Source: Spirochaetota bacterium
GTDB lineage: Bacteria; Spirochaetota; Spirochaetia; Treponematales; UBA12059
Length of the DNA stretch: 64,000 nt
Direction of reading: 5' to 3'
Assembly (NCBI GenBank): GCA_022703505.1
Contig: JAKLDN010000005.1
Coordinates: 200,717 to 264,716, forward strand
Shown: one piece after another, positions 21,371 to 34,170 of the stretch
How the letters are laid out: every line of letters starts with the position of its first letter
How positions within the stretch are numbered: the first letter of the stretch is position 1
Program-made: the position numbers and the translations under genes
The notes under the pieces: generated by a model
Told to the model about the DNA's origin: nothing
The model's database searches: none
What the model saw: the letters and a program-made list of their open reading frames with translations, nothing else

Positions 21371-21757
21371 GTGAGCGATTCGGACAGGGCCGCGGTCTGC
21401 GGATGCCGTACGGTCCACGAGGACCGCGTCGAGCGGGCCCGGGAGGCCCAGATCCCGGTGGCGCGCCTGCTCCGCATGGGAGAGCTCTTCAAGGTCTTCG
21501 CGGACCCCTCACGGCTGCGCATCCTGGGCGCCCTGGCCTCGGAGGAGCTCTGCGTCTGCGACCTGGCCTCGGCCCTGGATATGTCCCAGTCCGCCGTGAG
21601 CCACCAGCTGGCGGTCCTCAAGCGGTCCCGGTTGGTGCGGTACCGGAGGGACGGGAAGACGGTCTTCTACTCCCTGGACGACGACCACGTACGCCAGATC
21701 CTGGCGGTGGCTTCCGGGCACCTGGCGGAAGAGGATGGAATCCATGGAATCCGATAG
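21371..21757 (+). CDS. Metal-sensing ArsR/SmtB (CadC-like) repressor
   Basis: FKVFADPSRLRIL, LCVCDLA, SQSAVSHQL and YSLDDDHV motifs; N-terminal CGC; GTG start. Confidence 0.88.
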   Translation: MSDSDRAAVCGCRTVHEDRVERAREAQIPVARLLRMGELFKVFADPSRLRILGALASEELCVCDLASALDMSQSAVSHQLAVLKRSRLVRYRRDGKTVFYSLDDDHVRQILAVASGHLAEEDGIHGIR

Positions 21758-23741
21758 CGGCCGAGAATGCTCCTGCGCGACCTGCTCCCGGGCGGCTGAG
21801 GCCGAAAGCGGGGCCCGAAGCCGCGCCGGGGACCCCGGCCGCGCCGTCGATCCCGCCCTGACCCGGGAGGGCCTCTTCCTGGGCGCCGCCGCCCTGGTGG
21901 CCGGCGCGGGGTTCCTGCTGGAGTCCGGCCTGACCGGCGGACCGGACGCGAAGCCCCTCGTCCTCGCCCTTTTCGTCGCGGCCTATCTCCTGGCCGGTTG
22001 GAACGTGATCGCCGGAGCGGTCCGGAACCTCCTGGCCGGCCGCCCCTTCGACGAGCTCTTCCTCATGACCGTGTCGACCATCGGGGCCTTCCTGATCGGC
22101 CATCCCGAGGAGGCCGTGGGGGTGATGGTCTTCTACAAGATCGGGGAGCTCCTCCAGGAGTCCGCGGCCCTGCGGAGCCGGAGGTCCATCCGGGCGGTCC
22201 TGGCCCTGAGGCCGGATTCCGCCCGGGTCCTACGGGACGGCCGTCCGGTCGTCGTCCGGCCCGAGGAAGTCCGGGTCGGCGAGCCGGTCCGGGTGCGCCC
22301 GGGAGAGCGGGTGCCCCTGGACGGCGTGGTCGAGCACGGCGAGGGCTGGGTGGACTCCAGCGCCCTGACCGGGGAGTCCGTACCCCGGCGCGCCCTCCCG
22401 GGCGTCGAGATCCTGGCCGGCTCCATAGCCCGGGAGGGGGAGCTCACGGTCCGCGTGATCCGGCCCGCCTCGGAATCCTACGCGGCCCGGATCGCGGACC
22501 TGGTGGAGAACGCCTCCCACGCCAAGGCCCGGCCGGAGCGCTTCATCACCCGCTTCGCCCGGTGGTACACCCCCGCCGTGGTCGCGGCAGCTGCGGGACT
22601 GGCCTTCCTCCCGCCGCTTCTCGTGCCGGGACAGTCGCTCTCGGACTGGGTCTACCGGGCCCTGGTGATGCTCGTCATCTCCTGCCCCTGCGCCCTGGTC
22701 CTGAGCGTGCCCCTGGGGTACTTCGCGGGCCTGGGGGGCGCCGCGAGGCGAGGCATCCTGGTCAAGGGTTCCCAGGCCTTCGAGGCCCTGGCGGAGGCCC
22801 GGACCGTGGTCTTCGACAAGACCGGCACCCTGACCCGGGGCGAGTTCGAGGTGCGCGCCGTGATCCCCCGGGACGGCCGCTCGGAACGGGAGGTCCTGGA
22901 AGGCGCGGTCCGGGCGGAGTCGGGGTCCAACCACCCGATCGCCGCGGCCCTGCGCCGGGAAGCCGGGCGCCGGGGCCTTCCGCCCGCTCCGGAAGCGGGC
23001 GCCCCGGTCTACCGCCGGGAGACGGCGGGCAGGGGCGTCTCGGCGCGGGACGGGGAATCCCACGTGCTCGCGGGGTCCGCGGCCTTCCTTGCCGAGGAGG
23101 GGATCGCCCTGCCGGAGGCCCCCCCGGAGCCCGAGCTGGGCGCCGGAACCGAGGTCCTGGTCGCGGCGGACGGCTCCTACCTGGGCCGCATCCTCCTGGG
23201 GGACTCCGTGAAGCCCGACGCTCGGGAGGCTCTGGACCGTCTCCGGTCCCAGGGGATCCGGCGCTTCGTCCTCCTGACCGGGGACGCCCGGGGTCCGGCC
23301 CACGAGGCGGCCTCGGAGCTCGGCATCGGGGAGGTCCACTTCGGCCTTTTACCCCACGAGAAGCTCGAGCGGATGGAGACCCTCCTGGCCAAGCGGAACG
23401 GAGAGCCGGGAGGGATCCTCTTCGTCGGGGACGGGATCAACGACGCCCCGGTCCTGGCCCGGGCGGACGTGGGGGTGGCCGTAGGCACCGGGGCTGACGC
23501 GGCCCTGGAGACCGCGGACGCGGTCCTCATGTCCGACCGCTTGTCCGCCCTTCCGGAGGCGGTTTTTCGGGCCCGGAAGACCCGGGGCATCGTCCGGCAG
23601 AACATCGTCTTCGCCCTGGGCTTCAAGCTGGTCTTCCTGGCCCTGGGAGCCGCGGGGTTCGCCGACATGTGGCTGGCCGTGGTGGCCGACGTCGGGGTGG
23701 CCCTGACGGCGGTGCTGAACTCGGTCCGGGCGCTCAAGTAG
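21744..23741 (+). CDS. cadA: Heavy-metal P1B-type ATPase (Zn/Cd/Pb, CadA/ZntA-like)
   Basis: LTGES, SCPCAL, DKTGTLT, HP and GDGINDAP motifs; Lys in TM7 and DVG in TM8; N-terminal CSCATC. Alternative start 21735. Confidence 0.88.
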   Translation: MESDSGRECSCATCSRAAEAESGARSRAGDPGRAVDPALTREGLFLGAAALVAGAGFLLESGLTGGPDAKPLVLALFVAAYLLAGWNVIAGAVRNLLAGRPFDELFLMTVSTIGAFLIGHPEEAVGVMVFYKIGELLQESAALRSRRSIRAVLALRPDSARVLRDGRPVVVRPEEVRVGEPVRVRPGERVPLDGVVEHGEGWVDSSALTGESVPRRALPGVEILAGSIAREGELTVRVIRPASESYAARIADLVENASHAKARPERFITRFARWYTPAVVAAAAGLAFLPPLLVPGQSLSDWVYRALVMLVISCPCALVLSVPLGYFAGLGGAARRGILVKGSQAFEALAEARTVVFDKTGTLTRGEFEVRAVIPRDGRSEREVLEGAVRAESGSNHPIAAALRREAGRRGLPPAPEAGAPVYRRETAGRGVSARDGESHVLAGSAAFLAEEGIALPEAPPEPELGAGTEVLVAADGSYLGRILLGDSVKPDAREALDRLRSQGIRRFVLLTGDARGPAHEAASELGIGEVHFGLLPHEKLERMETLLAKRNGEPGGILFVGDGINDAPVLARADVGVAVGTGADAALETADAVLMSDRLSALPEAVFRARKTRGIVRQNIVFALGFKLVFLALGAAGFADMWLAVVADVGVALTAVLNSVRALK

Positions 23742-23819
23742 GGGCCGGGGCCGGGCCGCCTTGCGGATCCGGGGCCCCGGGGGCTAGACTTGGGTCAGCC
23801 CATCCCACGGAGGCCGTCC

Positions 23820-24725
23820 ATGGACGAGATCCTGGCCTGGGGCCTGGAGGTCGTACGGTCCGTGCAGACCGCCGCCTCCCCGGGTCTCACGGCGTCGTTC
23901 CGTTTCCTGAGCCTGCTCGGGACGGAGTACTTCTTCCTCTTCGCCCTGCCCGTGGTCTACTGGTGCGTGGATCACCGGAAGGGAATCCGCCTGGGGCTCC
24001 TGGTCCTGGTTTCCGCGGTCCTGAATTCCTGGCTCAAGGTGGTCTTCCGGCAGCCCCGGCCCTACGACCTGGACCCCTCGGTCGGAATGGCCCGGGAGAC
24101 GAGCTACGGCCTGCCCTCGGGCCACTCCCAGAGCTCGGCCACCTTCTGGGGAGTCGTCGCCCCCTGGATCCGCGCACCCTGGGGCCTCGTGCTGGCCCTG
24201 GCCCTGCCCTTCCTGATCGGACTTTCCCGGGTCTACCTGGGGGTGCACTTCCCCACGGACGTCTTCCTGGGCTGGGCCCTGGGAGCCCTCTTCGCGGCGT
24301 CCCACGCCGTCTGGGGGGATACCCTGGAGGCCCTGGTCGGGCGCCTACCGGGACGGCTGTGGATCGCGGCGGCCGCCGCGGCGGCCCTGGGCATGAACGC
24401 CCTGAACCCGGAGGAGACGGGACTGCCGGGCGCCCTTTTCGGCATGGTGGTCGGGGCCGTCCTGGCCGCATCCCGGGCCCGGTTCGACGCCGCCTCGGGC
24501 GGCCTCGCCCGGAAAGCCCTGCGGCTGGCCGCGGGGACGGCGGGAGCCGCGGTCCTCTATTTCGGCCTCAAGGCCGTCCTTCCGGGTGAAGGTTCCGCGA
24601 ACTACGCCCTCTTCCGCTTCCTGAGGTACGGAGTCCTGGGCGCCTGGGTCTCCCTGGGGGCTCCCTGGGTCTTCCTTCGCCTGGGTCTCGCGGAGGAACG
24701 GCCCGCGGCTACTCCGCGAACGTGA
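23820..24725 (+). CDS. PAP2-family membrane phosphatase
   Basis: KVVFRQPRP, PSGH and SRVYLGVHFPTDV catalytic motifs; ggagg SD. Confidence 0.88.
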   Translation: MDEILAWGLEVVRSVQTAASPGLTASFRFLSLLGTEYFFLFALPVVYWCVDHRKGIRLGLLVLVSAVLNSWLKVVFRQPRPYDLDPSVGMARETSYGLPSGHSQSSATFWGVVAPWIRAPWGLVLALALPFLIGLSRVYLGVHFPTDVFLGWALGALFAASHAVWGDTLEALVGRLPGRLWIAAAAAAALGMNALNPEETGLPGALFGMVVGAVLAASRARFDAASGGLARKALRLAAGTAGAAVLYFGLKAVLPGEGSANYALFRFLRYGVLGAWVSLGAPWVFLRLGLAEERPAATPRT

Positions 24726-25731
24726 AGGTCTTGTCCGTCAGGTTGAAGGCCTTGGAAGCCCCCGGAGACAGGTAGAGCCTCCGCTGGTCGTCCACGTAGA
24801 TCGCCTCGACCCCGGGCAGGGTCCGGACCAGGGCCAGGCCCCGTTCCCGCCCCAGGGCGAAGAGGGTCGTGGACAGTCCGTCCGCGTCGATGGAGGAGGG
24901 GGCGATGACCGTCACGGAGACGATCTCGGACTCCACGGGACTTCCCGTCCGGGTGTCCAGGATGTGGTGGTAACGCTTCCCGTCCTGCTCGAAGAACCTC
25001 TCGTACACCCCGCTGGTCACGACGGTGCCGGCGCCCATGCTGACGATCCCCAGGTAGCTGCCCCGGTCATTGAAGGGATTCTGCACCCCCACCCGCCAGA
25101 GGGACCCGTCGGCCTTCTTCCCGTACACCAGGACGTTTCCCCCCAGGTCCACGACCGCGGCCCGGACCCGGCGTTCCCCCAGGATGCGGGCGGTCTCGTC
25201 CGCGGCGTAGCCCTTGGCGATGGCCCCCAGGTCCAGGCGCATGCCGGACCGGGGCAGGAAGACCGTCGAGGCCCGTTCGTCCAGGACCACGGACTTCCAG
25301 CTCACCAGGGGCAGGGCCTCCCGGATCTCCCGGTCCGAGGGAACCCTCTGTCCGTCCAGTCCGATGTTCCAGAGCTTGACCACGGGCCCGATGGTCGGAT
25401 CGAAGGCCCCGTTCGAGAGCCGGGCGTATTCCAGGGCCTTCTTGACCACGAAGAGGGTGTCCGGGGACACCCGGACGGGGGAGCGGCCCGCGGCCTCGTT
25501 GACCGCGGCGATCTCGGTGCCCTCCCGGTTGGCGCTCATCCGGGCCTCGATCTCCCGGAGCCGGGCGAAAACCGCCTGGAGGACCGCCTCGGATCCCCCG
25601 TCCTGGAGGGAGACCGTACAGATGGTGCCCAGGACGTACTCGGATCCCCGCAGGGGCTCCCGGGTGCCCGTCCGGGCGCAGGCGGATAGGGAAAGGGAAA
25701 GGCACAGGAGTGCCGGAACGATACGGCGCAT
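24709..25731 (-). CDS. apbE: FAD:protein FMN transferase (ApbE) lipoprotein
   Basis: Lipobox LSAC; GAFDPTIGP, LDLGAIAKGY, VTSGVYER, HHILDTRTG and ADGLST motifs. Confidence 0.93.
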   Translation of the reverse strand: MRRIVPALLCLSLSLSACARTGTREPLRGSEYVLGTICTVSLQDGGSEAVLQAVFARLREIEARMSANREGTEIAAVNEAAGRSPVRVSPDTLFVVKKALEYARLSNGAFDPTIGPVVKLWNIGLDGQRVPSDREIREALPLVSWKSVVLDERASTVFLPRSGMRLDLGAIAKGYAADETARILGERRVRAAVVDLGGNVLVYGKKADGSLWRVGVQNPFNDRGSYLGIVSMGAGTVVTSGVYERFFEQDGKRYHHILDTRTGSPVESEIVSVTVIAPSSIDADGLSTTLFALGRERGLALVRTLPGVEAIYVDDQRRLYLSPGASKAFNLTDKTFTFAE

Positions 25732-26482: not shown

Positions 26483-27445
26483 ATGCTCCGGTCCCTGACC
26501 CTGGCGGTCCTGGCGGCCCTGCTCTTCTACGGGGTCCTGCCCGTCGCCGGGGCCTTCTCGGCCCGGGCCGGGTGGAGGACCTTCCGGAGACGGTTCCTGG
26601 CCTCCCTCGGTTACGCGCCCCTCGCCCTGGGGGACGGACTGCGGTCCCCGGAGGGAGAGGTCCTGGTACGGCGGCATTCCGGCTCCGCGGAGGTCCTCCA
26701 GGGGGAGGACCGGCTCTGGGTCCGCGGCGATGGAACGACCGCGGCGGTCCTACTCAAGGACGCCCGCATCTACCTGCTCCCGTCGGCACGGACCCCGGAG
26801 GGCCCCTATGATCTCGAAGCCGCGGACGAATCCCTGCAGCCCGCGGCCTGGAACCGGCTGTCCGGCCTCTCGGAGGGGGCCCGGGTCTACGCGGCCGGAA
26901 ACCTCAGGATCGAGGGCGGTCTTCCCGTCTTCTTCGGTTCCCCCGCCGAGCCCCTGTTGATCCTGATCCACGACGGCCGGGACGGGGATCTTGCCCGGCG
27001 CGCGGTCTGGGCGGGCCGGCACCGGAACGAGTACTGGAATCCCGTCACCCTGGTGTCCCTGACCGCGGGCTTCCTCTCCACGGGAGCGGCCCTCTACGAC
27101 CTGCTGCGGCCGCCCCTGCTGTCCCTACCCGCGGCCCTGGCGGCCGCCCTGACCGTCTCCCCGGTCCTCCCCTTCCTGCCGCCCGGGCTGGCCTTCCTTT
27201 CGATATACCGCAGACTCTGGGCCCGGGCGCGGTATCTCCGGGCGCATAGGGACCTGTTGAGATCCGGACTGGAGGACCCGGGCGGGAAGTACGGCCCCGG
27301 GGACGCGGAGGACCCGGAGGACGCGGCCGAGGCCCGCGTGCGCAGGGCCCGCAAGGATGAAGTCCTGGCCGGGCTGGCCTTCGCGGCCGCCCTGTCGTCG
27401 AATTTCCTGCTGGCCGTGCTCGCGGTCCGCGGGATCATTCGTTGA
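26483..27445 (+). CDS. Hypothetical membrane protein
   Basis: N-terminal TM, soluble middle region and C-terminal hydrophobic helices; GC3-consistent frame. Confidence 0.65.
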   Translation: MLRSLTLAVLAALLFYGVLPVAGAFSARAGWRTFRRRFLASLGYAPLALGDGLRSPEGEVLVRRHSGSAEVLQGEDRLWVRGDGTTAAVLLKDARIYLLPSARTPEGPYDLEAADESLQPAAWNRLSGLSEGARVYAAGNLRIEGGLPVFFGSPAEPLLILIHDGRDGDLARRAVWAGRHRNEYWNPVTLVSLTAGFLSTGAALYDLLRPPLLSLPAALAAALTVSPVLPFLPPGLAFLSIYRRLWARARYLRAHRDLLRSGLEDPGGKYGPGDAEDPEDAAEARVRRARKDEVLAGLAFAAALSSNFLLAVLAVRGIIR

Positions 27446-28157
27446 CGGGGTCGTCTCCCTCGGTTTCTTCCTCCCCTTCGGGGCGGTCCTCGGGCCTCCC
27501 GGGCCGGGACTCTTCCTTCCGCGGGCGGGCCCGGTTGACCGCGAGCTTCCGCCCCTTGAAGGACGTGCCGTCCGCGTCCTGGATGATGAGGTCCGCGGCT
27601 GCGGGATGCACGTTGACGAAAGTGTAGTTGTCGAAGGTCCGGATGGATCCGATGTCCGATTCCTCGAGGCCGGAGATCCCGGAGAGCACCCGCAGGACGT
27701 TCTGGGCGGTGAAGCGTTGGCGGCGGCCCATGCTGAAGAAGAGGGTCGTGCCCTCCCCGGAGTAGGAGCCTTTCCGGATCCGGAGGTCCGCCGATTCGAG
27801 GGCATTCTCGGTCCCGGCCTTGCCCGACGGAGCGCCGGGCTTACCGGGCGCCGATCCGGGAGATCGCTTTTCGCCCTTCGGCCCCACGACCCGGTTCGGT
27901 CCCGGGGCGGGGACGGGGACCGAGCGGCGGGGACCGGCGGAAGCGCCCAAGGCACGAAGGACCAGGGCCGCCGCGACGTAGGACCGGAGATGGAAGGGGA
28001 CCCGGGAGCGGAAGAGGGACCGGCAGGCGTTCAGGATGGCCGGGTCGCGGATGGAGCGCACGTCTTCCAGGATCTTCCCGATGAGAGCCTCGGCTTCCGC
28101 GGCGGGAAAGCCGTGTTGCGTATCTTCCGTTGACACATCAAACTCCTTGGTTTCCAT
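27435..28157 (-). CDS. Protein with a DbpA-type RNA-binding domain and no helicase core
   Basis: C-terminal TTLFFSMGRRQRF...DIGSIRTFDNYTFVNV...KGRKLAVNRA resembles the DbpA RRM-like domain. Alternative start 28184. Confidence 0.7.
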   Translation of the reverse strand: METKEFDVSTEDTQHGFPAAEAEALIGKILEDVRSIRDPAILNACRSLFRSRVPFHLRSYVAAALVLRALGASAGPRRSVPVPAPGPNRVVGPKGEKRSPGSAPGKPGAPSGKAGTENALESADLRIRKGSYSGEGTTLFFSMGRRQRFTAQNVLRVLSGISGLEESDIGSIRTFDNYTFVNVHPAAADLIIQDADGTSFKGRKLAVNRARPRKEESRPGRPEDRPEGEEETEGDDPVNE

Positions 28158-28339
28158 ATTGGCGGATACCGGGTGGAATCGCAAGGGCCCGGGCTCGCGG
28201 CGCCTCCGGAATCCGGCCCGATTAAATATATTATTATATCTATATTATCTATTCCATACTTGACCGAACGGCAAAATCCGGGCAAGATTATGGAGATTTC
28301 GGGGCGAACCAAATCATGAATCCTACGCAAGGAGCGTAT

Positions 28340-30340
28340 ATGGCGGACAAGAAGCGCATCCTGATCCTGGGCGGCGGCTACGCGGGCGTCTGGGCCGGGA
28401 AGATCCTAGAAAAGAAGTACCGGAAGCGGGACGACGTGGAAATCACCCTGGTGGACAAGAAGCCCTTCCACACCCTGATGACCGAGCTGCACGAGGTGGC
28501 CGGCTGGCGGGTGGAGCCCGAATCGGTCCAGGTCCCCTTCCGCAAGATCTTCGGCGCCCGGAAGATCGACATCCGGGTCGACACCATCACCGGGGTCGAC
28601 TTCCACGCCAAGGTCGCCAAGAGCTCCAGCGCGGAGTACCCCTTCGACTACATCGTCATCGGGGTCGGGGCGGAGCCCGAGTACTTCGGCATTCCCGGGG
28701 TCCAGGAGAACTCCTTCCCCCTGTGGTCCTTCGACGACGCGATACGCCTGCGGCACCACGTGGAGCACATGTTCGCCAAGGCCGCCTGCGAGACCGACCC
28801 CGCCAAGCGCCGGCGCATGCTCACTTTCGTGGTGGCCGGCGCGGGCTTCACGGGGATCGAGATGATCGGCGAGCTCCTGGAGTACCGCCAGGACATGTGC
28901 CGCAAGCACCACCTGGATCCCAAGGAGACCCGGGTCGTCAACATCGAAGCCCTGCCCTCCATTCTCCCGATCCTGGAGGAGCCCCTCCGGGTCCGGGCCG
29001 AGAACTACATGAAAAAGATGGGCTGCGAGATCTTCCTGAACTCCGCCATCACCGGCGCGGAGCCCGGAAAGGTCCTGCTGAAGGACGGCACCGTCGTGGA
29101 GACGGACACCTTCATCTGGACCTGCGGGGTCAAGGGCTCGTCCTTCACCTCCGTCCTGGACGTCCCCAAGGCCGAGCGGGGCCGGGGCCGCATGCAGGCC
29201 AACGACTTCATGCAGTCCACCGCCTACCCCTACGTCTACCTGGCCGGGGACTCCGCCTTCATCCTGGAGCCCAACGGCAAACCCATGCCCCAGATCGTGG
29301 AGGCCTCCCATTGCTCCGCGGAGACGGTGGCCCACAACATCATGGCGGACATCGACGGCGGGGAGCACCACAAGTTCAAGCCGAACTACCACGGCTTCAT
29401 GGTGTCCATCGGCGGGAAGTACGGCGTGGCCAACGCGGGCGGCATGAAGACCCGGGGCTTCATGGCCATGGCCATGAAGCACATGATCAACTGCTGGTAC
29501 CTGCTGAACATCGCGGGGATCAACCAGGTCTGGGAATACCTCAAGCACGAATTCCTGGACATGACCACGGGCCGCACCTTCATCGGCGGCTTCGTGTCCC
29601 ACCGGGTCCGGGCCTACTGGCCGCTCCTCCTGCGCATGTGGCTGGGCCTCATGTGGGTGATGGAGGGCGTGAACAAGATCGGCGAGGGCTGGCTCAAGTT
29701 CGATCTGGGCAGCAAGAGCGGGTGGATGTTCTCCTCCGGGGTGGTCCAGAAGGGCGTGGCCGACGCGGCCAGCGCGGCCAGCGGCGAGTGGGCCGCGGAC
29801 GCCACCGCCGCCGCCTCCGGGGCCGTGGAGGCCGCCGCCGAGGCGGTGACCGCCGCCTCCGGCGAATGGGCCGCGGACGCCACGGCGGCCGCCTCGGGCG
29901 CCGCGGAAGCCGTAGCCGAGGGAGCCGGGAAGGCCCTGGGCAAGGTCTGGGACCTGGCCAAGCCGATCTTCGACTTCAACGGCCCGGTCTCCACCTGGTT
30001 CCGGACCACCTTCATGGACGGGATGTTCGCGCACCTGCACTTCGCCGCCTTCCAGGGCATGATCGTCGTCATGGAGATCCTGATCGGACTCGCCCTCTTC
30101 GGCGGCTGCTTCACCTGGCTGGCCGCGGTGGCCAGCATCGGGATGTGCGTGGTCTTCACCCTCTCGGGCATGTTCGCCTGGGACCAGCTCTGGTTCGTCT
30201 TCGCCGCCATCCTCTGCATGGGCGGGGTCGGACGCGCCTTCGGCATGGACTACTGGGTGGTCCCCTTCTTCAAGCGCTGGTGGAACGGCACCAAGTTCGC
30301 CCGCAAGAACTACTTCTACGCGGACGACCCGACCAAGTGA
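28340..30340 (+). CDS. Type II NADH dehydrogenase-like flavoprotein fused to a DoxX-like membrane domain
   Basis: Two Rossmann motifs (ILGGGYAG, VAGAGFTGIE), IWTCGV and YLAGD; C-terminal LRMWLGLMW...MEILIGLALFGG...AFGMDYW membrane domain. Confidence 0.85.
   Translation: MADKKRILILGGGYAGVWAGKILEKKYRKRDDVEITLVDKKPFHTLMTELHEVAGWRVEPESVQVPFRKIFGARKIDIRVDTITGVDFHAKVAKSSSAEYPFDYIVIGVGAEPEYFGIPGVQENSFPLWSFDDAIRLRHHVEHMFAKAACETDPAKRRRMLTFVVAGAGFTGIEMIGELLEYRQDMCRKHHLDPKETRVVNIEALPSILPILEEPLRVRAENYMKKMGCEIFLNSAITGAEPGKVLLKDGTVVETDTFIWTCGVKGSSFTSVLDVPKAERGRGRMQANDFMQSTAYPYVYLAGDSAFILEPNGKPMPQIVEASHCSAETVAHNIMADIDGGEHHKFKPNYHGFMVSIGGKYGVANAGGMKTRGFMAMAMKHMINCWYLLNIAGINQVWEYLKHEFLDMTTGRTFIGGFVSHRVRAYWPLLLRMWLGLMWVMEGVNKIGEGWLKFDLGSKSGWMFSSGVVQKGVADAASAASGEWAADATAAASGAVEAAAEAVTAASGEWAADATAAASGAAEAVAEGAGKALGKVWDLAKPIFDFNGPVSTWFRTTFMDGMFAHLHFAAFQGMIVVMEILIGLALFGGCFTWLAAVASIGMCVVFTLSGMFAWDQLWFVFAAILCMGGVGRAFGMDYWVVPFFKRWWNGTKFARKNYFYADDPTK
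29783..29938 (+). repeat. Intragenic 78-bp (26-aa) tandem duplication
   Basis: Units starting at 29783 (ggcgagtgggccgcggacgcc) and 29861 (ggcgaatgggccgcggacgcc) encode GEWAADATAAASGA twice. Confidence 0.85.
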
Positions 30341-30354
30341 TTCGAATGATCTCC

Positions 30355-30491
30355 GGAAGGACGGCGCACCCGGGGCGGTGTGCCGTCCTTCCCCTCCGAA
30401 GACGTGCCGCCCTGCCTTCAGAAACACGATCCGGAGAACTCGACGAAGCCCGAAGGGCTTCGTCGCCTTCGGGTCGCGAAGCGACCCGAAG
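30355..30491 (+). repeat. Cluster of three hairpins between the NDH-2 fusion and polyprenyl synthase genes
   Basis: 16-bp stem at 30355-30392 (one G-U); cgacgaagccc-GAA-gggcttcgtcg at 30441-30465; cttcgggtcgc-GAA-gcgacccgaag at 30467-30491. Confidence 0.8.
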
Positions 30492-30493
30492 CG

Positions 30494-31462
30494 ATGACTG
30501 ACTTCTGGAACGATTTCCCCACCGTCAAGAAGCGCCTCGAGGCCGTCTCCGCCGAGATGGCCTCGACTGTCCGCTCCGCGGGTTTCCCCCTGGCCGCGGA
30601 ACTGGCCCGGGTAGTGGAGTCGGACGGCAAGATGCTCCGCCCCGGCTTCCTCCTCCTGGCCGCCGAGTTCGGCAAGCCCGGCCGGGCGGCCGACCTGGCG
30701 CCCCTGGCCGCCTCCATCGAACTGCTGCACATAGCCACCCTGATCCACGACGACATCCTGGACGAGGCGCCCCTCCGCAGGGGGGAGCCCGCCTTCCACG
30801 TGCGGAACGGGGTCAAGGAGGCGGTGCTGACCGGGGACTGGCTCTTCGCCCAGTGTTTCCGCCTGGCCTCGGCCTTCTCCACCCCCGAGAACGCCCGGCG
30901 CTTCGCCCTGGTCATCGGCATCGTCTGCTCCTCGGAGATCCGCCAGGACCTGGACAAGTTCCGGTACTCCAAGAGTGTCCGCGAGTACCTGCGCAAGATC
31001 GCCGGAAAGACCGCGGCCCTCTTCTCCCTGGCCTTCACCCTGGGGGCCGTGGAGGGGGGCTGCGACCCCGGGACGGTAGGCCGTCTGCGGAGAACCGGGT
31101 ACGACATCGGCATGGCCTTCCAGGTGATCGACGACATCCTGGACTACGAGAGCACCGAGGGGATCTTCCGCAAGCCCGTGGGCAAGGACATCTCCGAGGG
31201 CCTGTGCACCCTGCCCCTCATCCACGCCCTGGAGCGGGACGACGGCCGCCTGGCCGCCCTGCTGGAGAATCCCCCCTTCGACCGCCCCGCGGTCGACCGC
31301 ATCGTCCGGCTCATCCGGGAGTCGGGAGCCCTGGAGGCCTCCCGGGGGATCGCGCGGAGGTACACGGAGCGGGCCCTCCGGGAGATCGAGGGCCTGCCCG
31401 ACAAGCCCGTACGGCTGACCCTGAGGCGCGTGACCGAGCGCCTCCTGGTGCGGGCCTACTGA
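30494..31462 (+). CDS. Long-chain polyprenyl diphosphate synthase (HepT/IspB-like)
   Basis: GKMLRP, first and second aspartate-rich motifs (HDDILD..LRRG, FQVIDDILD), GKTA and GKDISEG. Confidence 0.9.
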   Translation: MTDFWNDFPTVKKRLEAVSAEMASTVRSAGFPLAAELARVVESDGKMLRPGFLLLAAEFGKPGRAADLAPLAASIELLHIATLIHDDILDEAPLRRGEPAFHVRNGVKEAVLTGDWLFAQCFRLASAFSTPENARRFALVIGIVCSSEIRQDLDKFRYSKSVREYLRKIAGKTAALFSLAFTLGAVEGGCDPGTVGRLRRTGYDIGMAFQVIDDILDYESTEGIFRKPVGKDISEGLCTLPLIHALERDDGRLAALLENPPFDRPAVDRIVRLIRESGALEASRGIARRYTERALREIEGLPDKPVRLTLRRVTERLLVRAY

Positions 31463-31485
31463 CGGACGCGGGAACGGAGCCGTCC

Positions 31486-32079
31486 ATGAAGAACGAACTG
31501 GCCACCTACATCCTGGTCGCCCTGGGCCTTTCCATGGACGCCTTCGCGGTGTCCGTCTCCAGCGGGATCTGCATCCCCAGGCTCGAGTTCCGGCACGGGC
31601 TCCGTGCAGCCGCCTTCTTCGGCCTTTTCCAGTTCCTGATGCCCCTGGCCGGGTACTTCGTCGGCGCCGCCTTCCGGGGCCCGATCCGGGGCTACGACCA
31701 CTGGATCGCCTTCGGCCTGTTGGCCTTCGTGGGGGCCAAGATGATCAAGGAGGGCTTCGAGGTCCGCACGGACGCGGCCTGCGACGAGGAGGAGCTCCGC
31801 AAACGGAACATCCTGGACCTGGGAACCCTGGTCCTGCTGTCCGTGGCCACCAGCATCGACGCCTTGGCGGTGGGGCTTTCCTACAGCCTCCTGGACCAGC
31901 CCATCCTCCCCCCCGCCTCCATCATCGGCGTCCTGACCTTCCTGGTATGCCTGGCGGGCTGCGAGTTCGGCAAGCGCCTGGGCGCCGTCTTCGAGCGCTG
32001 GGCCGAGGTGGCCGGGGGAGCCGTCCTCGTGGGCATCGGGATCAAGATCCTGGCGGAGCACCTCTCGAACGGGCTGTAG
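31486..32079 (+). CDS. mntP: Manganese efflux pump MntP family
   Basis: LGLSMDAFAVS, FGLFQFLMP and ATSIDALAVG motifs. Confidence 0.88.
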   Translation: MKNELATYILVALGLSMDAFAVSVSSGICIPRLEFRHGLRAAAFFGLFQFLMPLAGYFVGAAFRGPIRGYDHWIAFGLLAFVGAKMIKEGFEVRTDAACDEEELRKRNILDLGTLVLLSVATSIDALAVGLSYSLLDQPILPPASIIGVLTFLVCLAGCEFGKRLGAVFERWAEVAGGAVLVGIGIKILAEHLSNGL

Positions 32080-32658: not shown

Positions 32659-34170
32659 GTGCCCGTGGCCCAGCTCTGCCTCTGCCTGACCGGAAGCACC
32701 CTGGCGGAAAACCTCCGGGCCCTGGACATGTACCGGGGCCGGATCGACCTGGCCGAACTCCGGGCGGACTGCCTGGATCCCAACGAGGTCTTCCATATCC
32801 GTTCGTTCCCGGAGCTGGCGGGAATCCCGACCATCCTCTCGGTCCGGCGCCGCGCGGACGGAGGCTACTTCGACGACGGGGAAGGCGCCCGGCTCGTGGT
32901 CTTCGCCAAGGGCCTGGCCTTCGCCAGCCGGGACCGGAGACTGAACTTCGCCTACGTGGACATCGAGCAGGACTTCCGGATCCCGGCCCTGGAGGAGGCG
33001 GCGCGCACCTTCGGTACCCGGATCATCCGGTCCCGGTACTGCCCCGCCGGACTGCCGGAGGACCTGGACGAGATTTGGACGGACCTCTCACGGGATCCCT
33101 ACGAGATCCCCAAGCTGGCGGCCGTCCTGCGGGGCATCGGGGAGACCCGCCGGCTCTTCGAGTTCGCGGACCGTCTGCCCGACACGGAGCACATCGTCTC
33201 CGGGATGGGGGAGTACGGATTCTGCTTCCGCATCCTGACCTCCCGCACGGGAAGCCTGATCAACTACGCCAGTCCCTCCCTGGCGGGCCTTCCCTCCGCC
33301 GCCCCCGGACAGGCCACCGCGGAGGAGTACGAGAACGTCTACCGCTGGCGGAAGATCCGGAAGGACTACTCGGTCTTCGGAATCCTGGGAGGCCCCTCGG
33401 TCCTGGGCTCCCTCTCCCCCTCCCTGCACAACGCGGGATACGCGGAACTGGGGATGCCCGCGGTCTACCTACCCTTCCCCTCGGATTCCCTGGAGCAGTT
33501 CCTGGCCCTGGCGGAGGAACTGGGGGTTCGTGGTTTCTCCGTCACCGTTCCCTTCAAGGAAAAAATCCTGCCCTACCTTACGGAACGCGCTCCGGAGGTC
33601 TCCGCCATCGGTGCCTGCAACACCGTGGTCCGGACCCCCTCGGGCTGGTACGGCACGAACACCGACGCCGCGGGCTTCGAGCGCTCCGTCCTGGACTTCC
33701 TCAAGCGCCCCGACTTGAAGGGCGTCCGGACCGCCATCATCGGGGCCGGAGGCTCCGCCCGGGCGGTGGCCTACGCCCTGCAGAAGCTGGGGGCCTCGGC
33801 CTGCGTGGTCAACCGGGGCATGAACAAGGCCAAGCAGCTGGCCGAGCGCCACGGCTTCGAGTGGGCGGGGATGAACGAACGGGCGGTGGAGCTCCTGGGC
33901 CGATACAACGATCTCATCGTACAGACCACCTCGGTGGGCATGGAGGGGGGAGTTCCGGGGGATCCCCTGGAATGGTACGAGTTCACGGGCTCGGAAGCCC
34001 TGGTGGACATCATCTACAACCCCAAGGAGACCCCCGTGATGCGCCGGGCCCGGGAGGCGGGCTGCGCCGTGGCCAACGGCCTGGGGATGCTACGCGCCCA
34101 GGGGGAGGTCCAGTTCGAACTGTTCACCGGCAAAAAGTACCCCGGCCTGCCCTTCGGGGACGTAGTCTAG
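32659..34170 (+). CDS. aroE: Bifunctional type I 3-dehydroquinate dehydratase / shikimate dehydrogenase (AroD-AroE fusion)
   Basis: N-terminal ELRAD, IPKLA, MGEYG and APGQ; C-terminal SLSP, TVPFK, NTV, NTD, GAGGSARA and QG. Confidence 0.85.
   Translation: MPVAQLCLCLTGSTLAENLRALDMYRGRIDLAELRADCLDPNEVFHIRSFPELAGIPTILSVRRRADGGYFDDGEGARLVVFAKGLAFASRDRRLNFAYVDIEQDFRIPALEEAARTFGTRIIRSRYCPAGLPEDLDEIWTDLSRDPYEIPKLAAVLRGIGETRRLFEFADRLPDTEHIVSGMGEYGFCFRILTSRTGSLINYASPSLAGLPSAAPGQATAEEYENVYRWRKIRKDYSVFGILGGPSVLGSLSPSLHNAGYAELGMPAVYLPFPSDSLEQFLALAEELGVRGFSVTVPFKEKILPYLTERAPEVSAIGACNTVVRTPSGWYGTNTDAAGFERSVLDFLKRPDLKGVRTAIIGAGGSARAVAYALQKLGASACVVNRGMNKAKQLAERHGFEWAGMNERAVELLGRYNDLIVQTTSVGMEGGVPGDPLEWYEFTGSEALVDIIYNPKETPVMRRAREAGCAVANGLGMLRAQGEVQFELFTGKKYPGLPFGDVV

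Follow-up and report, generated by a model that had tools for sequence, protein, structure and literature searches.

Candidate flavinylation motifs repeated in the predicted periplasmic loop of a spirochaete Ndh2

Does a type II NADH (reduced nicotinamide adenine dinucleotide) dehydrogenase of the kind used in extracellular electron transfer (EET) carry, in its own outward loop, sites at which the flavin transferase ApbE could attach flavin mononucleotide (FMN)? This question is raised by ndh2, a gene on a stretch of 64,000 nucleotides from a Spirochaetota bacterium (contig JAKLDN010000005.1, positions 200,717 to 264,716; hereafter the window), whose product joins a type II NADH dehydrogenase (NDH-2) to a DoxX/DoxD-like membrane domain. 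An earlier note, made from the sequence of the window, had described this fusion and had read an alanine-rich loop behind its first transmembrane helix as a series of variants of the ApbE recognition sequence, which is D-x-x-[S/T]-G-A-[S/T] (PMC12052999). We found that this is a known protein family with a known part in EET, and that the new element is a candidate flavinylation site on Ndh2/Ndh3, which emerges from the comparison of sequences across the family.

The loop behind the first membrane helix

The ndh2 gene, an EET-type homologue identified by Pfam and by homology, lies at 28340..30340 on the forward strand and is a single open reading frame of 666 amino acids. An alternative ATG is present upstream at 28316 in the same open frame (28316/28340..30340, forward strand); because homologues start with MADKK or MTDKK, the start was taken as 28340. 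The fusion described in the earlier note is indeed there, with a type II NADH dehydrogenase followed by a four-helix membrane domain of the DoxX/DoxD type. In an AlphaFold2 model of the protein, which was built from 85 sequences and has a mean pLDDT (predicted score of the local distance difference test) of 80.3, the membrane domain has its first helix (TM1) at residues 426-448 (29615..29683, forward strand), and the other three (TM2-TM4; residues 568-627, 30041..30220, forward strand) span residues 568-588, 592-608 and 614-627. Between TM1 and TM2, and directly after TM1 as had been noted, stretches an acidic loop of residues 449-567 (29684..30040, forward strand) that the charge count and the model predict to be periplasmic.

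The loop peptide reads exactly as it had been described, with the segments DAASAAS, GEWAA, DATAAAS, GAVEAAA, EAVTAAS, GEWAA and DATAAAS following one another within ...GVADAASAASGEWAADATAAASGAVEAAAEAVTAASGEWAADATAAASGAAEAVAEG.... Four of these heptads are candidate flavinylation sites, each with its terminal serine as the putative target: DAASAAS at 29762..29782 (residues 475-481, Ser481), DATAAAS at 29798..29818 (residues 487-493, Ser493), which has alanine at position -3 from the target, EAVTAAS at 29840..29860 (residues 501-507, Ser507) and DATAAAS again at 29876..29896 (residues 513-519, Ser519), all on the forward strand. Alanine at -3 is also seen in the sole motif copy of a Carnobacterium sp. 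(DATAGAS), and EAVTAAS is the commonest heptad among the close homologues of the protein. The duplication of 78 base pairs, to which part of the array had been ascribed, is real: it is a tandem direct repeat at 29751..29906 on the forward strand, whose copies (29751-29828 and 29829-29906) are 79% identical and which doubles a unit of 26 amino acids with two motifs. Further repeats of 9, 12 and 21 nucleotides are present in the region, and a homologue with 94% identity (P0002) has a different repeat arrangement in its loop.

The distribution of charges predicts a topology with the N-terminus inside and the loop outside, since the segment before TM1 has three Lys/Arg versus one Asp/Glu, the TM1-TM2 loop seven versus 14, and the C-terminal tail six versus three. 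An outward loop agrees with the position of the NADH-oxidising domain, which is necessarily cytoplasmic; thus the prediction, which is based on the charges and on the four helices that follow this domain, matches the extracytoplasmic placement given in the earlier note. The motif array itself (residues 478-535) is predicted to be disordered, with pLDDT values of 36-40, and the model puts weak helices at residues 473-481, 489-507 and 522-533 of the motif region. A hidden folded FMN-binding domain in the loop was ruled out by pLDDT values below 50 and by zero Pfam matches there.

Relatives of the protein and conservation of the heptad

We found 38% identity over the full 666 amino acids (E 3e-139) between the window protein and the Ndh2 of the flavin-based EET (FLEET) locus of Lactiplantibacillus plantarum, with the BLASTP alignment reaching residue 658 of 666. 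With this full-length homology the fusion is therefore not a new one: it exists as described, but both the DoxX-like domain and the motif loop are ancestral features of the EET-type Ndh2 proteins, a known family that includes it. Judged by its sequence, the window protein represents the EET-type Ndh2/Ndh3 family in a spirochaete; Ndh2 is the membrane NADH dehydrogenase through which Listeria-type bacteria export electrons. It shares with the FLEET Ndh2 of Listeria monocytogenes and L. plantarum, and with the Ndh3 of Enterococcus faecalis, the collinear arrangement in which a DoxX-like four-helix domain comes after an NDH-2.

A word-index search returned 3735 relatives; the best 120 of these 3735 are 523-718 amino acids long, all but one at least 635, and the named relatives among these best 120 are all Spirochaetota. 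When only the C-terminal domain was used in a HMMER scan of 1.84 billion proteins, 164 representatives were recovered, FLEET-locus proteins included, so this domain is rare. A search with the C-terminal domain of a FLEET-type distant member brought up 185 relatives from named genomes, of the genera Lacticaseibacillus, Latilactobacillus, Lactiplantibacillus (including L. plantarum EGD-AQ4), Enterococcus, Vagococcus, Carnobacterium and Loigolactobacillus.

The conservation of the motif was analysed in 113 close homologues and in a distant set of 53 representatives sharing less than 50% identity, each compared with composition-preserving shuffles. Among the close homologues, the loops are 70-132 amino acids long and unalignable, and [ST]AA[ST] is found 2.5 times per loop versus 0.38 times in the shuffles, while [DE]xx[ST][AG]A[ST] is found 1.74 times versus 0.03 times. 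The position preferences are E/A/D at -6, A at -5, T/V at -4, S/T at -3, A at -2, A at -1 and S/T at the target position, and in the spirochaete proteins G/A-x-W often comes next after the motif. In the loops of the 53 representatives, [DE]xx[ST][GAS]A[ST] occurs 51 times compared to 0.6 times in the shuffles, an 85-fold enrichment, and the core [ST][GAS]A[ST] reaches a density of 1.49 per 100 amino acids in the loop versus 0.11 elsewhere; the canonical Gly is present in 9 of the 53. Across the family, the only recurring element in the loop is [D/E]-A-[V/T/I]-[S/T/A]-[G/A/S]-A-[S/T].

The earlier note had proposed to compare homologues for a conserved core and had predicted a variable number of copies. 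The homologues keep the core D/E-x-x-[S/T/A]-[G/A/S]-A-[S/T], and the number of copies varies, with 0-9 strict [ST]AA[ST] copies per loop in the close homologues. A distant member of 736 amino acids (P0127) holds seven [ST]AA[ST]-type copies in a loop of 187 amino acids, six of them reading [AT]VTAASGA, which is the largest array seen.

In the Lactobacillales the motif takes its canonical form. The counts cover 79 loops; 80 loci were listed, Listeria not among them, and the canonical motif was confirmed in L. plantarum, Enterococcus, Vagococcus, Carnobacterium and relatives. We found [S/T]GA[S/T] in 77 of the 79 named loops, right behind a conserved LPFxWLQ, with examples such as ATSGAS, QVTTGAS, DATSGAS, DVTSGAT and EATTGAS and frequently a second copy such as DATSAAS. 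These loops are short (mean 32 amino acids) and are not Ala-rich repeats; the loop of L. plantarum, for instance, reads WLQAAATSGASEATKAAATSGASEAASS. The density of [ST]GA[ST] is 3.86 per 100 amino acids within the loop and 0.008 in the remainder of these proteins, a difference of about 470 times. The presence of canonical [S/T]GA[S/T] at the same place in the FLEET Ndh2 of L. plantarum and in Ndh3-type proteins of Enterococcus backs the proposal that the spirochaete heptads are G-to-A variants of the ApbE motif. Unlike the FLEET Ndh2, the window protein has [S/T]AA[S/T] rather than [S/T]GA[S/T], in four copies that arose by duplication; with the canonical site at the same place in the Lactobacillales, the spirochaete array would therefore be an amplified Gly-to-Ala form of a site ancestral to the family.

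Possible flavinylation of the loop and its alternatives

Seven residues are enough for flavinylation by ApbE, even in a foreign surface loop; within the motif, changing Asp to Ala has a minor effect only, changing Gly to Ala keeps about 50% of flavinylation, and Ser is accepted as the target with a yield below that of Thr (PMC12052999). The only ApbE gene of the genome is located in the window at 24709..25731 on the reverse strand, 2.6 kilobases (kb) upstream of ndh2 (PF02424, E 1.3e-93). It encodes a predicted lipoprotein with the N-terminus MRRIVPALLCLSLSLSAC, in which a lipobox is present, and because of this lipoprotein signal ApbE is expected in the compartment of the loop. Canonical client sites are found in two FMN_bind proteins of the genome (DGVSGAS and DTVSGAT). 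The sites of the classical clients are off the consensus at -2: RnfG has VAITAST, without the Asp and with Ala-Ser for Gly-Ala, RnfD has DAYTTAT, a second RnfD has DGVSSVT, and an RnfD-like subunit has EVLSAAT. Since the ApbE of this organism appears to serve such off-consensus clients, Ala at -2 is likely tolerated. The genes of the non-canonical clients are located at C12:34422-36166, C8:499360-500904 and C1:611813-613545.

We consider it plausible, with the case about evenly balanced, that the loop heptads carry covalent FMN as an electron relay. NADH would reduce flavin adenine dinucleotide (FAD) in the cytoplasmic domain, and this FAD would reduce a prenylated naphthoquinone whose side chain would be made by the synthase encoded downstream of ndh2. 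Oxidation of the quinol would then take place near the outer face, at the DoxX/DoxD-like domain. The periplasmic lipoprotein ApbE, accepting the Gly-to-Ala form of the motif, would move FMN from FAD onto the terminal Ser of the heptads, that is Ser481, Ser493, Ser507 and Ser519, and the tethered flavins would take the electrons of the quinol and hand them on to acceptors in the periplasm. In this way NADH, FAD, quinone and covalent FMN would be linked within one polypeptide, and tandem duplication of a unit of 12-26 amino acids, as in the 78-nucleotide repeat, would alter the number of flavins.

Several observations weigh against such a relay. None of the four copies in the window protein has the defining Gly, and in two of them Ser/Thr is missing at -3 as well; among the relatives, the motif is missing in two of the 79 Lactobacillales loops and in a few distant members (P0215, P0256). 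The motif region, with pLDDT values below 50, is without a predicted folded flavin pocket, and the confirmed natural clients of ApbE all bind their flavin in a folded domain. No report of covalent FMN on an Ndh2 was found in the papers compared. Furthermore, electron transfer from naphthoquinol to free-like, unshielded FMN, whose potential is about -200 mV, is uphill, a problem shared by the accepted model of electron transfer to the lipoprotein PplA. Three RnfD-like and three FMN_bind proteins already account for the ApbE of the genome, and in three spirochaete relatives the 8 kb around the gene hold no ApbE, which in a genome of the same family (G110) is 76 kb away from it. Adjacency to apbE was dropped as evidence because it is not conserved in spirochaetes and because RNF/NQR-type clients already explain ApbE. 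Co-occurrence was dropped as well: the protein is present in 6 of the 201 Spirochaetota genomes sampled, all six of which have ApbE, compared to a background of 79% in the phylum (p ~0.24). Of the interpretation offered in the earlier note, the outward loop, the conserved core, the variable copy number and the G-to-A variant have held up; the fusion is not new, and the nearby ApbE carries little weight.

Alternatively, the heptad may be functional in the membrane domain of Ndh2 and not flavinylated, either as the place where a partner docks (EetA/EetB, a lipoprotein of the PplA type, or ApbE as a non-productive binder) or as a small-residue helix-packing or hinge motif that gates the quinone site. 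The conservation and position-specificity of the motif show selection, not chemistry, and such a role would also fit the weak helices predicted in the motif region and the trailing G/A-x-W of the spirochaete proteins, which lies outside the ApbE motif. However, the ApbE sequence is matched at six of seven positions in spirochaetes and at seven of seven in several Lactobacillales (DATSGAS, DVTSGAT), and in Firmicutes loci the genes travel with ApbE/FmnB. Exact mimicry of a seven-residue tag that ApbE modifies even out of context (PMC12052999) is unexpected for a docking motif, and we regard docking or a hinge as unlikely. A neutral origin, in which the Ala-rich stretch is a fast-evolving low-complexity linker and words of the SAAS type arise from GC-rich codon repeats and replication slippage, is in keeping with a genome GC content of 63-73%, with the 9-, 12-, 21- and 78-nucleotide repeats of the region, with the span of 70-132 amino acids in loop length among close homologues and with the low pLDDT. 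It is disfavoured because the heptad is conserved across phyla, the same heptad being found in proteins of other lineages with 30-40% identity, including the short, non-Ala-rich loops of the Lactobacillales; given also the 85-fold enrichment over shuffles and the roughly 470 times denser [ST]GA[ST] in the loop, we find a neutral linker improbable.

The Ser/Thr of the motif could also carry another modification, such as phosphorylation or O-glycosylation of an Ala/Ser-rich periplasmic segment. Bacterial general O-glycosylation favours Ser in disordered segments rich in Ala, Pro and Ser, and the loop is predicted to be both periplasmic and disordered. Yet Asp/Glu at -6, Gly/Ala/Ser at -2 and Ala at -1 are the signature of ApbE and unlike the sequons known for glycosylation, the Lactobacillales, where FmnB belongs to the same locus, retain the motif, and no linkage to a glycosyltransferase was seen in any locus examined, which makes another modification very improbable in our view.

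A flavinylated loop would have both counterparts and differences among known systems. Like the clients of ApbE/Ftp (NqrC, RnfG, NqrB, RnfD, PplA, NosR, PceC, DUF2271 and DUF3570), the window protein has an extracytoplasmic heptad ending in Ser/Thr and a genome that encodes an ApbE lipoprotein; unlike these clients, which hold the flavin in a folded domain, it has its heptads in a predicted disordered loop, in tandem copies and with Ala in place of Gly. Multi-FMN_bind proteins, for which longer-range transfer has been proposed, likewise have several candidate FMN sites per extracytoplasmic polypeptide (PMC10339131; PMC12052999), but their unit is folded and has 120-160 amino acids, whereas the unit in the window protein has 12-26, is unstructured and lies inside a membrane enzyme. 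In the synthetic flavin-tag, ApbE needs no more than the seven residues of the motif, placed in a surface loop or at a terminus (Tong et al. 2021, via PMC12052999); that tag is engineered, and the Ndh2 loop would be its natural counterpart.

In E. faecalis, ferric reduction requires Ndh3, demethylmenaquinone (DMK), EetA and EetB and not PplA; according to Hederstedt, it is not known which proteins take electrons from reduced DMK to ferric iron there, PplA being dispensable (PMC9864754). With its conserved site of the ApbE type, the outward loop of Ndh2/Ndh3 is a concrete candidate for the step from reduced DMK to the outside, and a flavinylated Ndh3 loop would fit this gap. Such a site is unmentioned in the genome-wide surveys of ApbE (PMC8238504; 2024 bioRxiv), in the ApbE review (PMC12052999) and in studies of L. 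plantarum, of E. faecalis (PMC9864754) and of the energy-coupling factor (ECF) transporter and FmnB of Listeria; mentions that link Ndh2/Ndh3 with flavinylation are incidental only in the literature compared, to which Light et al. 2018 does not belong.

Extending the flavinylated loop to the whole family, we tentatively suggest that the EET-type Ndh2/Ndh3 of Lactobacillales and Spirochaetota may generally be substrates of ApbE/FmnB, with the loop FMN as the carrier from a dedicated quinone to outside acceptors, a generalization that is possible but somewhat doubtful. If it is true, the loop FMN of Ndh2/Ndh3 would explain the PplA-independent ferric reduction of E. faecalis (PMC9864754), and the spirochaetes would have turned one site into an array for several flavins that can evolve further and is borne by an unstructured tether, a natural flavin-tag. 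This would be the first natural client that ApbE modifies on an unstructured loop and a single polypeptide spanning from NADH to an extracytoplasmic flavin. It would also mean that the copy number of a redox cofactor can evolve through simple tandem duplication, and would extend the flavin-based EET pathway to diderm spirochaetes.

Domains, locus and neighbouring genes

The cytoplasmic NDH-2 domain takes up residues 1-405 (28340..29554, forward strand) and is modelled with pLDDT values of 83-97. Pfam and Foldseek find at this N-terminus the two dinucleotide-binding domains of the type II NADH dehydrogenase fold, with Pfam matches to Pyr_redox_2 at residues 14-322 (E 1.6e-31) and to Pyr_redox (E 1.7e-6), and in Foldseek the NDH-2 part superposes on the NDH-2 of Caldalkalibacillus thermarum with a template-modelling score of 0.94-0.95 (for 4nwz, 0.95 at 32% identity). 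With the whole model, Foldseek returned NDH-2-type matches only, which is uninformative on the membrane domain and the loop. The DoxX match of the window protein (residues 560-616, E 1.5e-4) scores 22.8-23.0 bits versus a curated cut-off of 23.6; among 20 diverse members of the family, DoxX was matched in 15 (best 5e-8) and DoxD in 14 (best 7e-11). The remaining Pfam match is a weak one to NAD_binding_9, and all Pfam matches fall outside the motif array. Judged by the matches across the family, the C-terminal domain appears to be quinone-associated and of the same fold family as DoxD/DoxX, the small subunit family of thiosulfate:quinone oxidoreductase; unlike these, it is fused to an NDH-2 and has a TM1-TM2 loop of about 120 amino acids rather than a short turn. 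After TM4, the model and the charge count give a cytoplasmic tail that is rich in K/R and amphipathic.

Downstream of ndh2, a polyprenyl diphosphate synthase is encoded in the position of dmkB at 30380..31462 on the forward strand (PF00348, E 5.4e-56), although the gene may in truth start further downstream. In eight of the eight related loci examined, a polyprenyl synthase gene follows closely on ndh2, either directly or past eetA/eetB, and in spirochaete loci this synthase is the conserved partner of ndh2, sometimes together with MntP. The locus of L. plantarum has the order ApbE, FMN_bind, Ndh2, NusG_II (EetA), Hpre_diP_synt_I (EetB) and polyprenyl_synt (DmkB), and the contig of a distant metagenomic member holds UbiA, UbiA, ApbE, FMN_bind, NDH-2, NusG_II, Hpre_diP_synt_I and polyprenyl_synt, with variants of this set on two other contigs. 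The window protein has in common with the FLEET Ndh2 the motif loop after TM1, the dmkB-type synthase just downstream, an ApbE/FmnB nearby and homologues of EetA/EetB and UbiA in the genome. Unlike FLEET, its locus is dispersed and without an adjacent PplA, and unlike the FLEET hosts the spirochaete is of the Gram-negative type, with the loop facing the periplasm.

By homology, the FLEET components are present in the genome but dispersed. One joint locus with fmnB, pplA, eetA, eetB and dmkA is not present, apbE and the prenyl synthase being the only local members, and the window has zero FMN_bind genes. An EetA-like NusG_II protein (E 5.8e-21) and an EetB-like Hpre_diP_synt_I protein (E 1.4e-31) are encoded next to each other at C10:916-1714, about 200 kb upstream on the same contig; the role ascribed to EetA/EetB has been changed to that of supplying FmnB with FAD. 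The sole UbiA prenyltransferase of the genome is on another contig (C9:203183-203884). A Firmicutes-type homologue (L011) is flanked by UbiA and an unassigned gene on one side and by a polyprenyl synthase on the other, without ApbE, PplA or EetA/EetB within 10 kb, and therefore the kind of minimal, quinone-linked module seen in the spirochaete exists outside Spirochaetota too.

Among the neighbouring genes, a 249-amino-acid open reading frame just upstream of ndh2 (27435-28184, reverse strand) has a DbpA RNA-binding domain only (residues 147-217, E 7e-17), without the DEAD-box helicase core. Between this gene and apbE, a predicted membrane protein of 321 amino acids without a Pfam match is encoded at 26483-27445 on the forward strand, and further out lie a PAP2 phosphatase (23790-24725) and a P-type ATPase (21735-23741). 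On the other side, an MntP manganese exporter is encoded within 30853-32079, and in a relative (L010) MntP likewise follows ndh2 and the prenyl synthase. A fused 3-dehydroquinase/shikimate dehydrogenase is found at 32659-34170.

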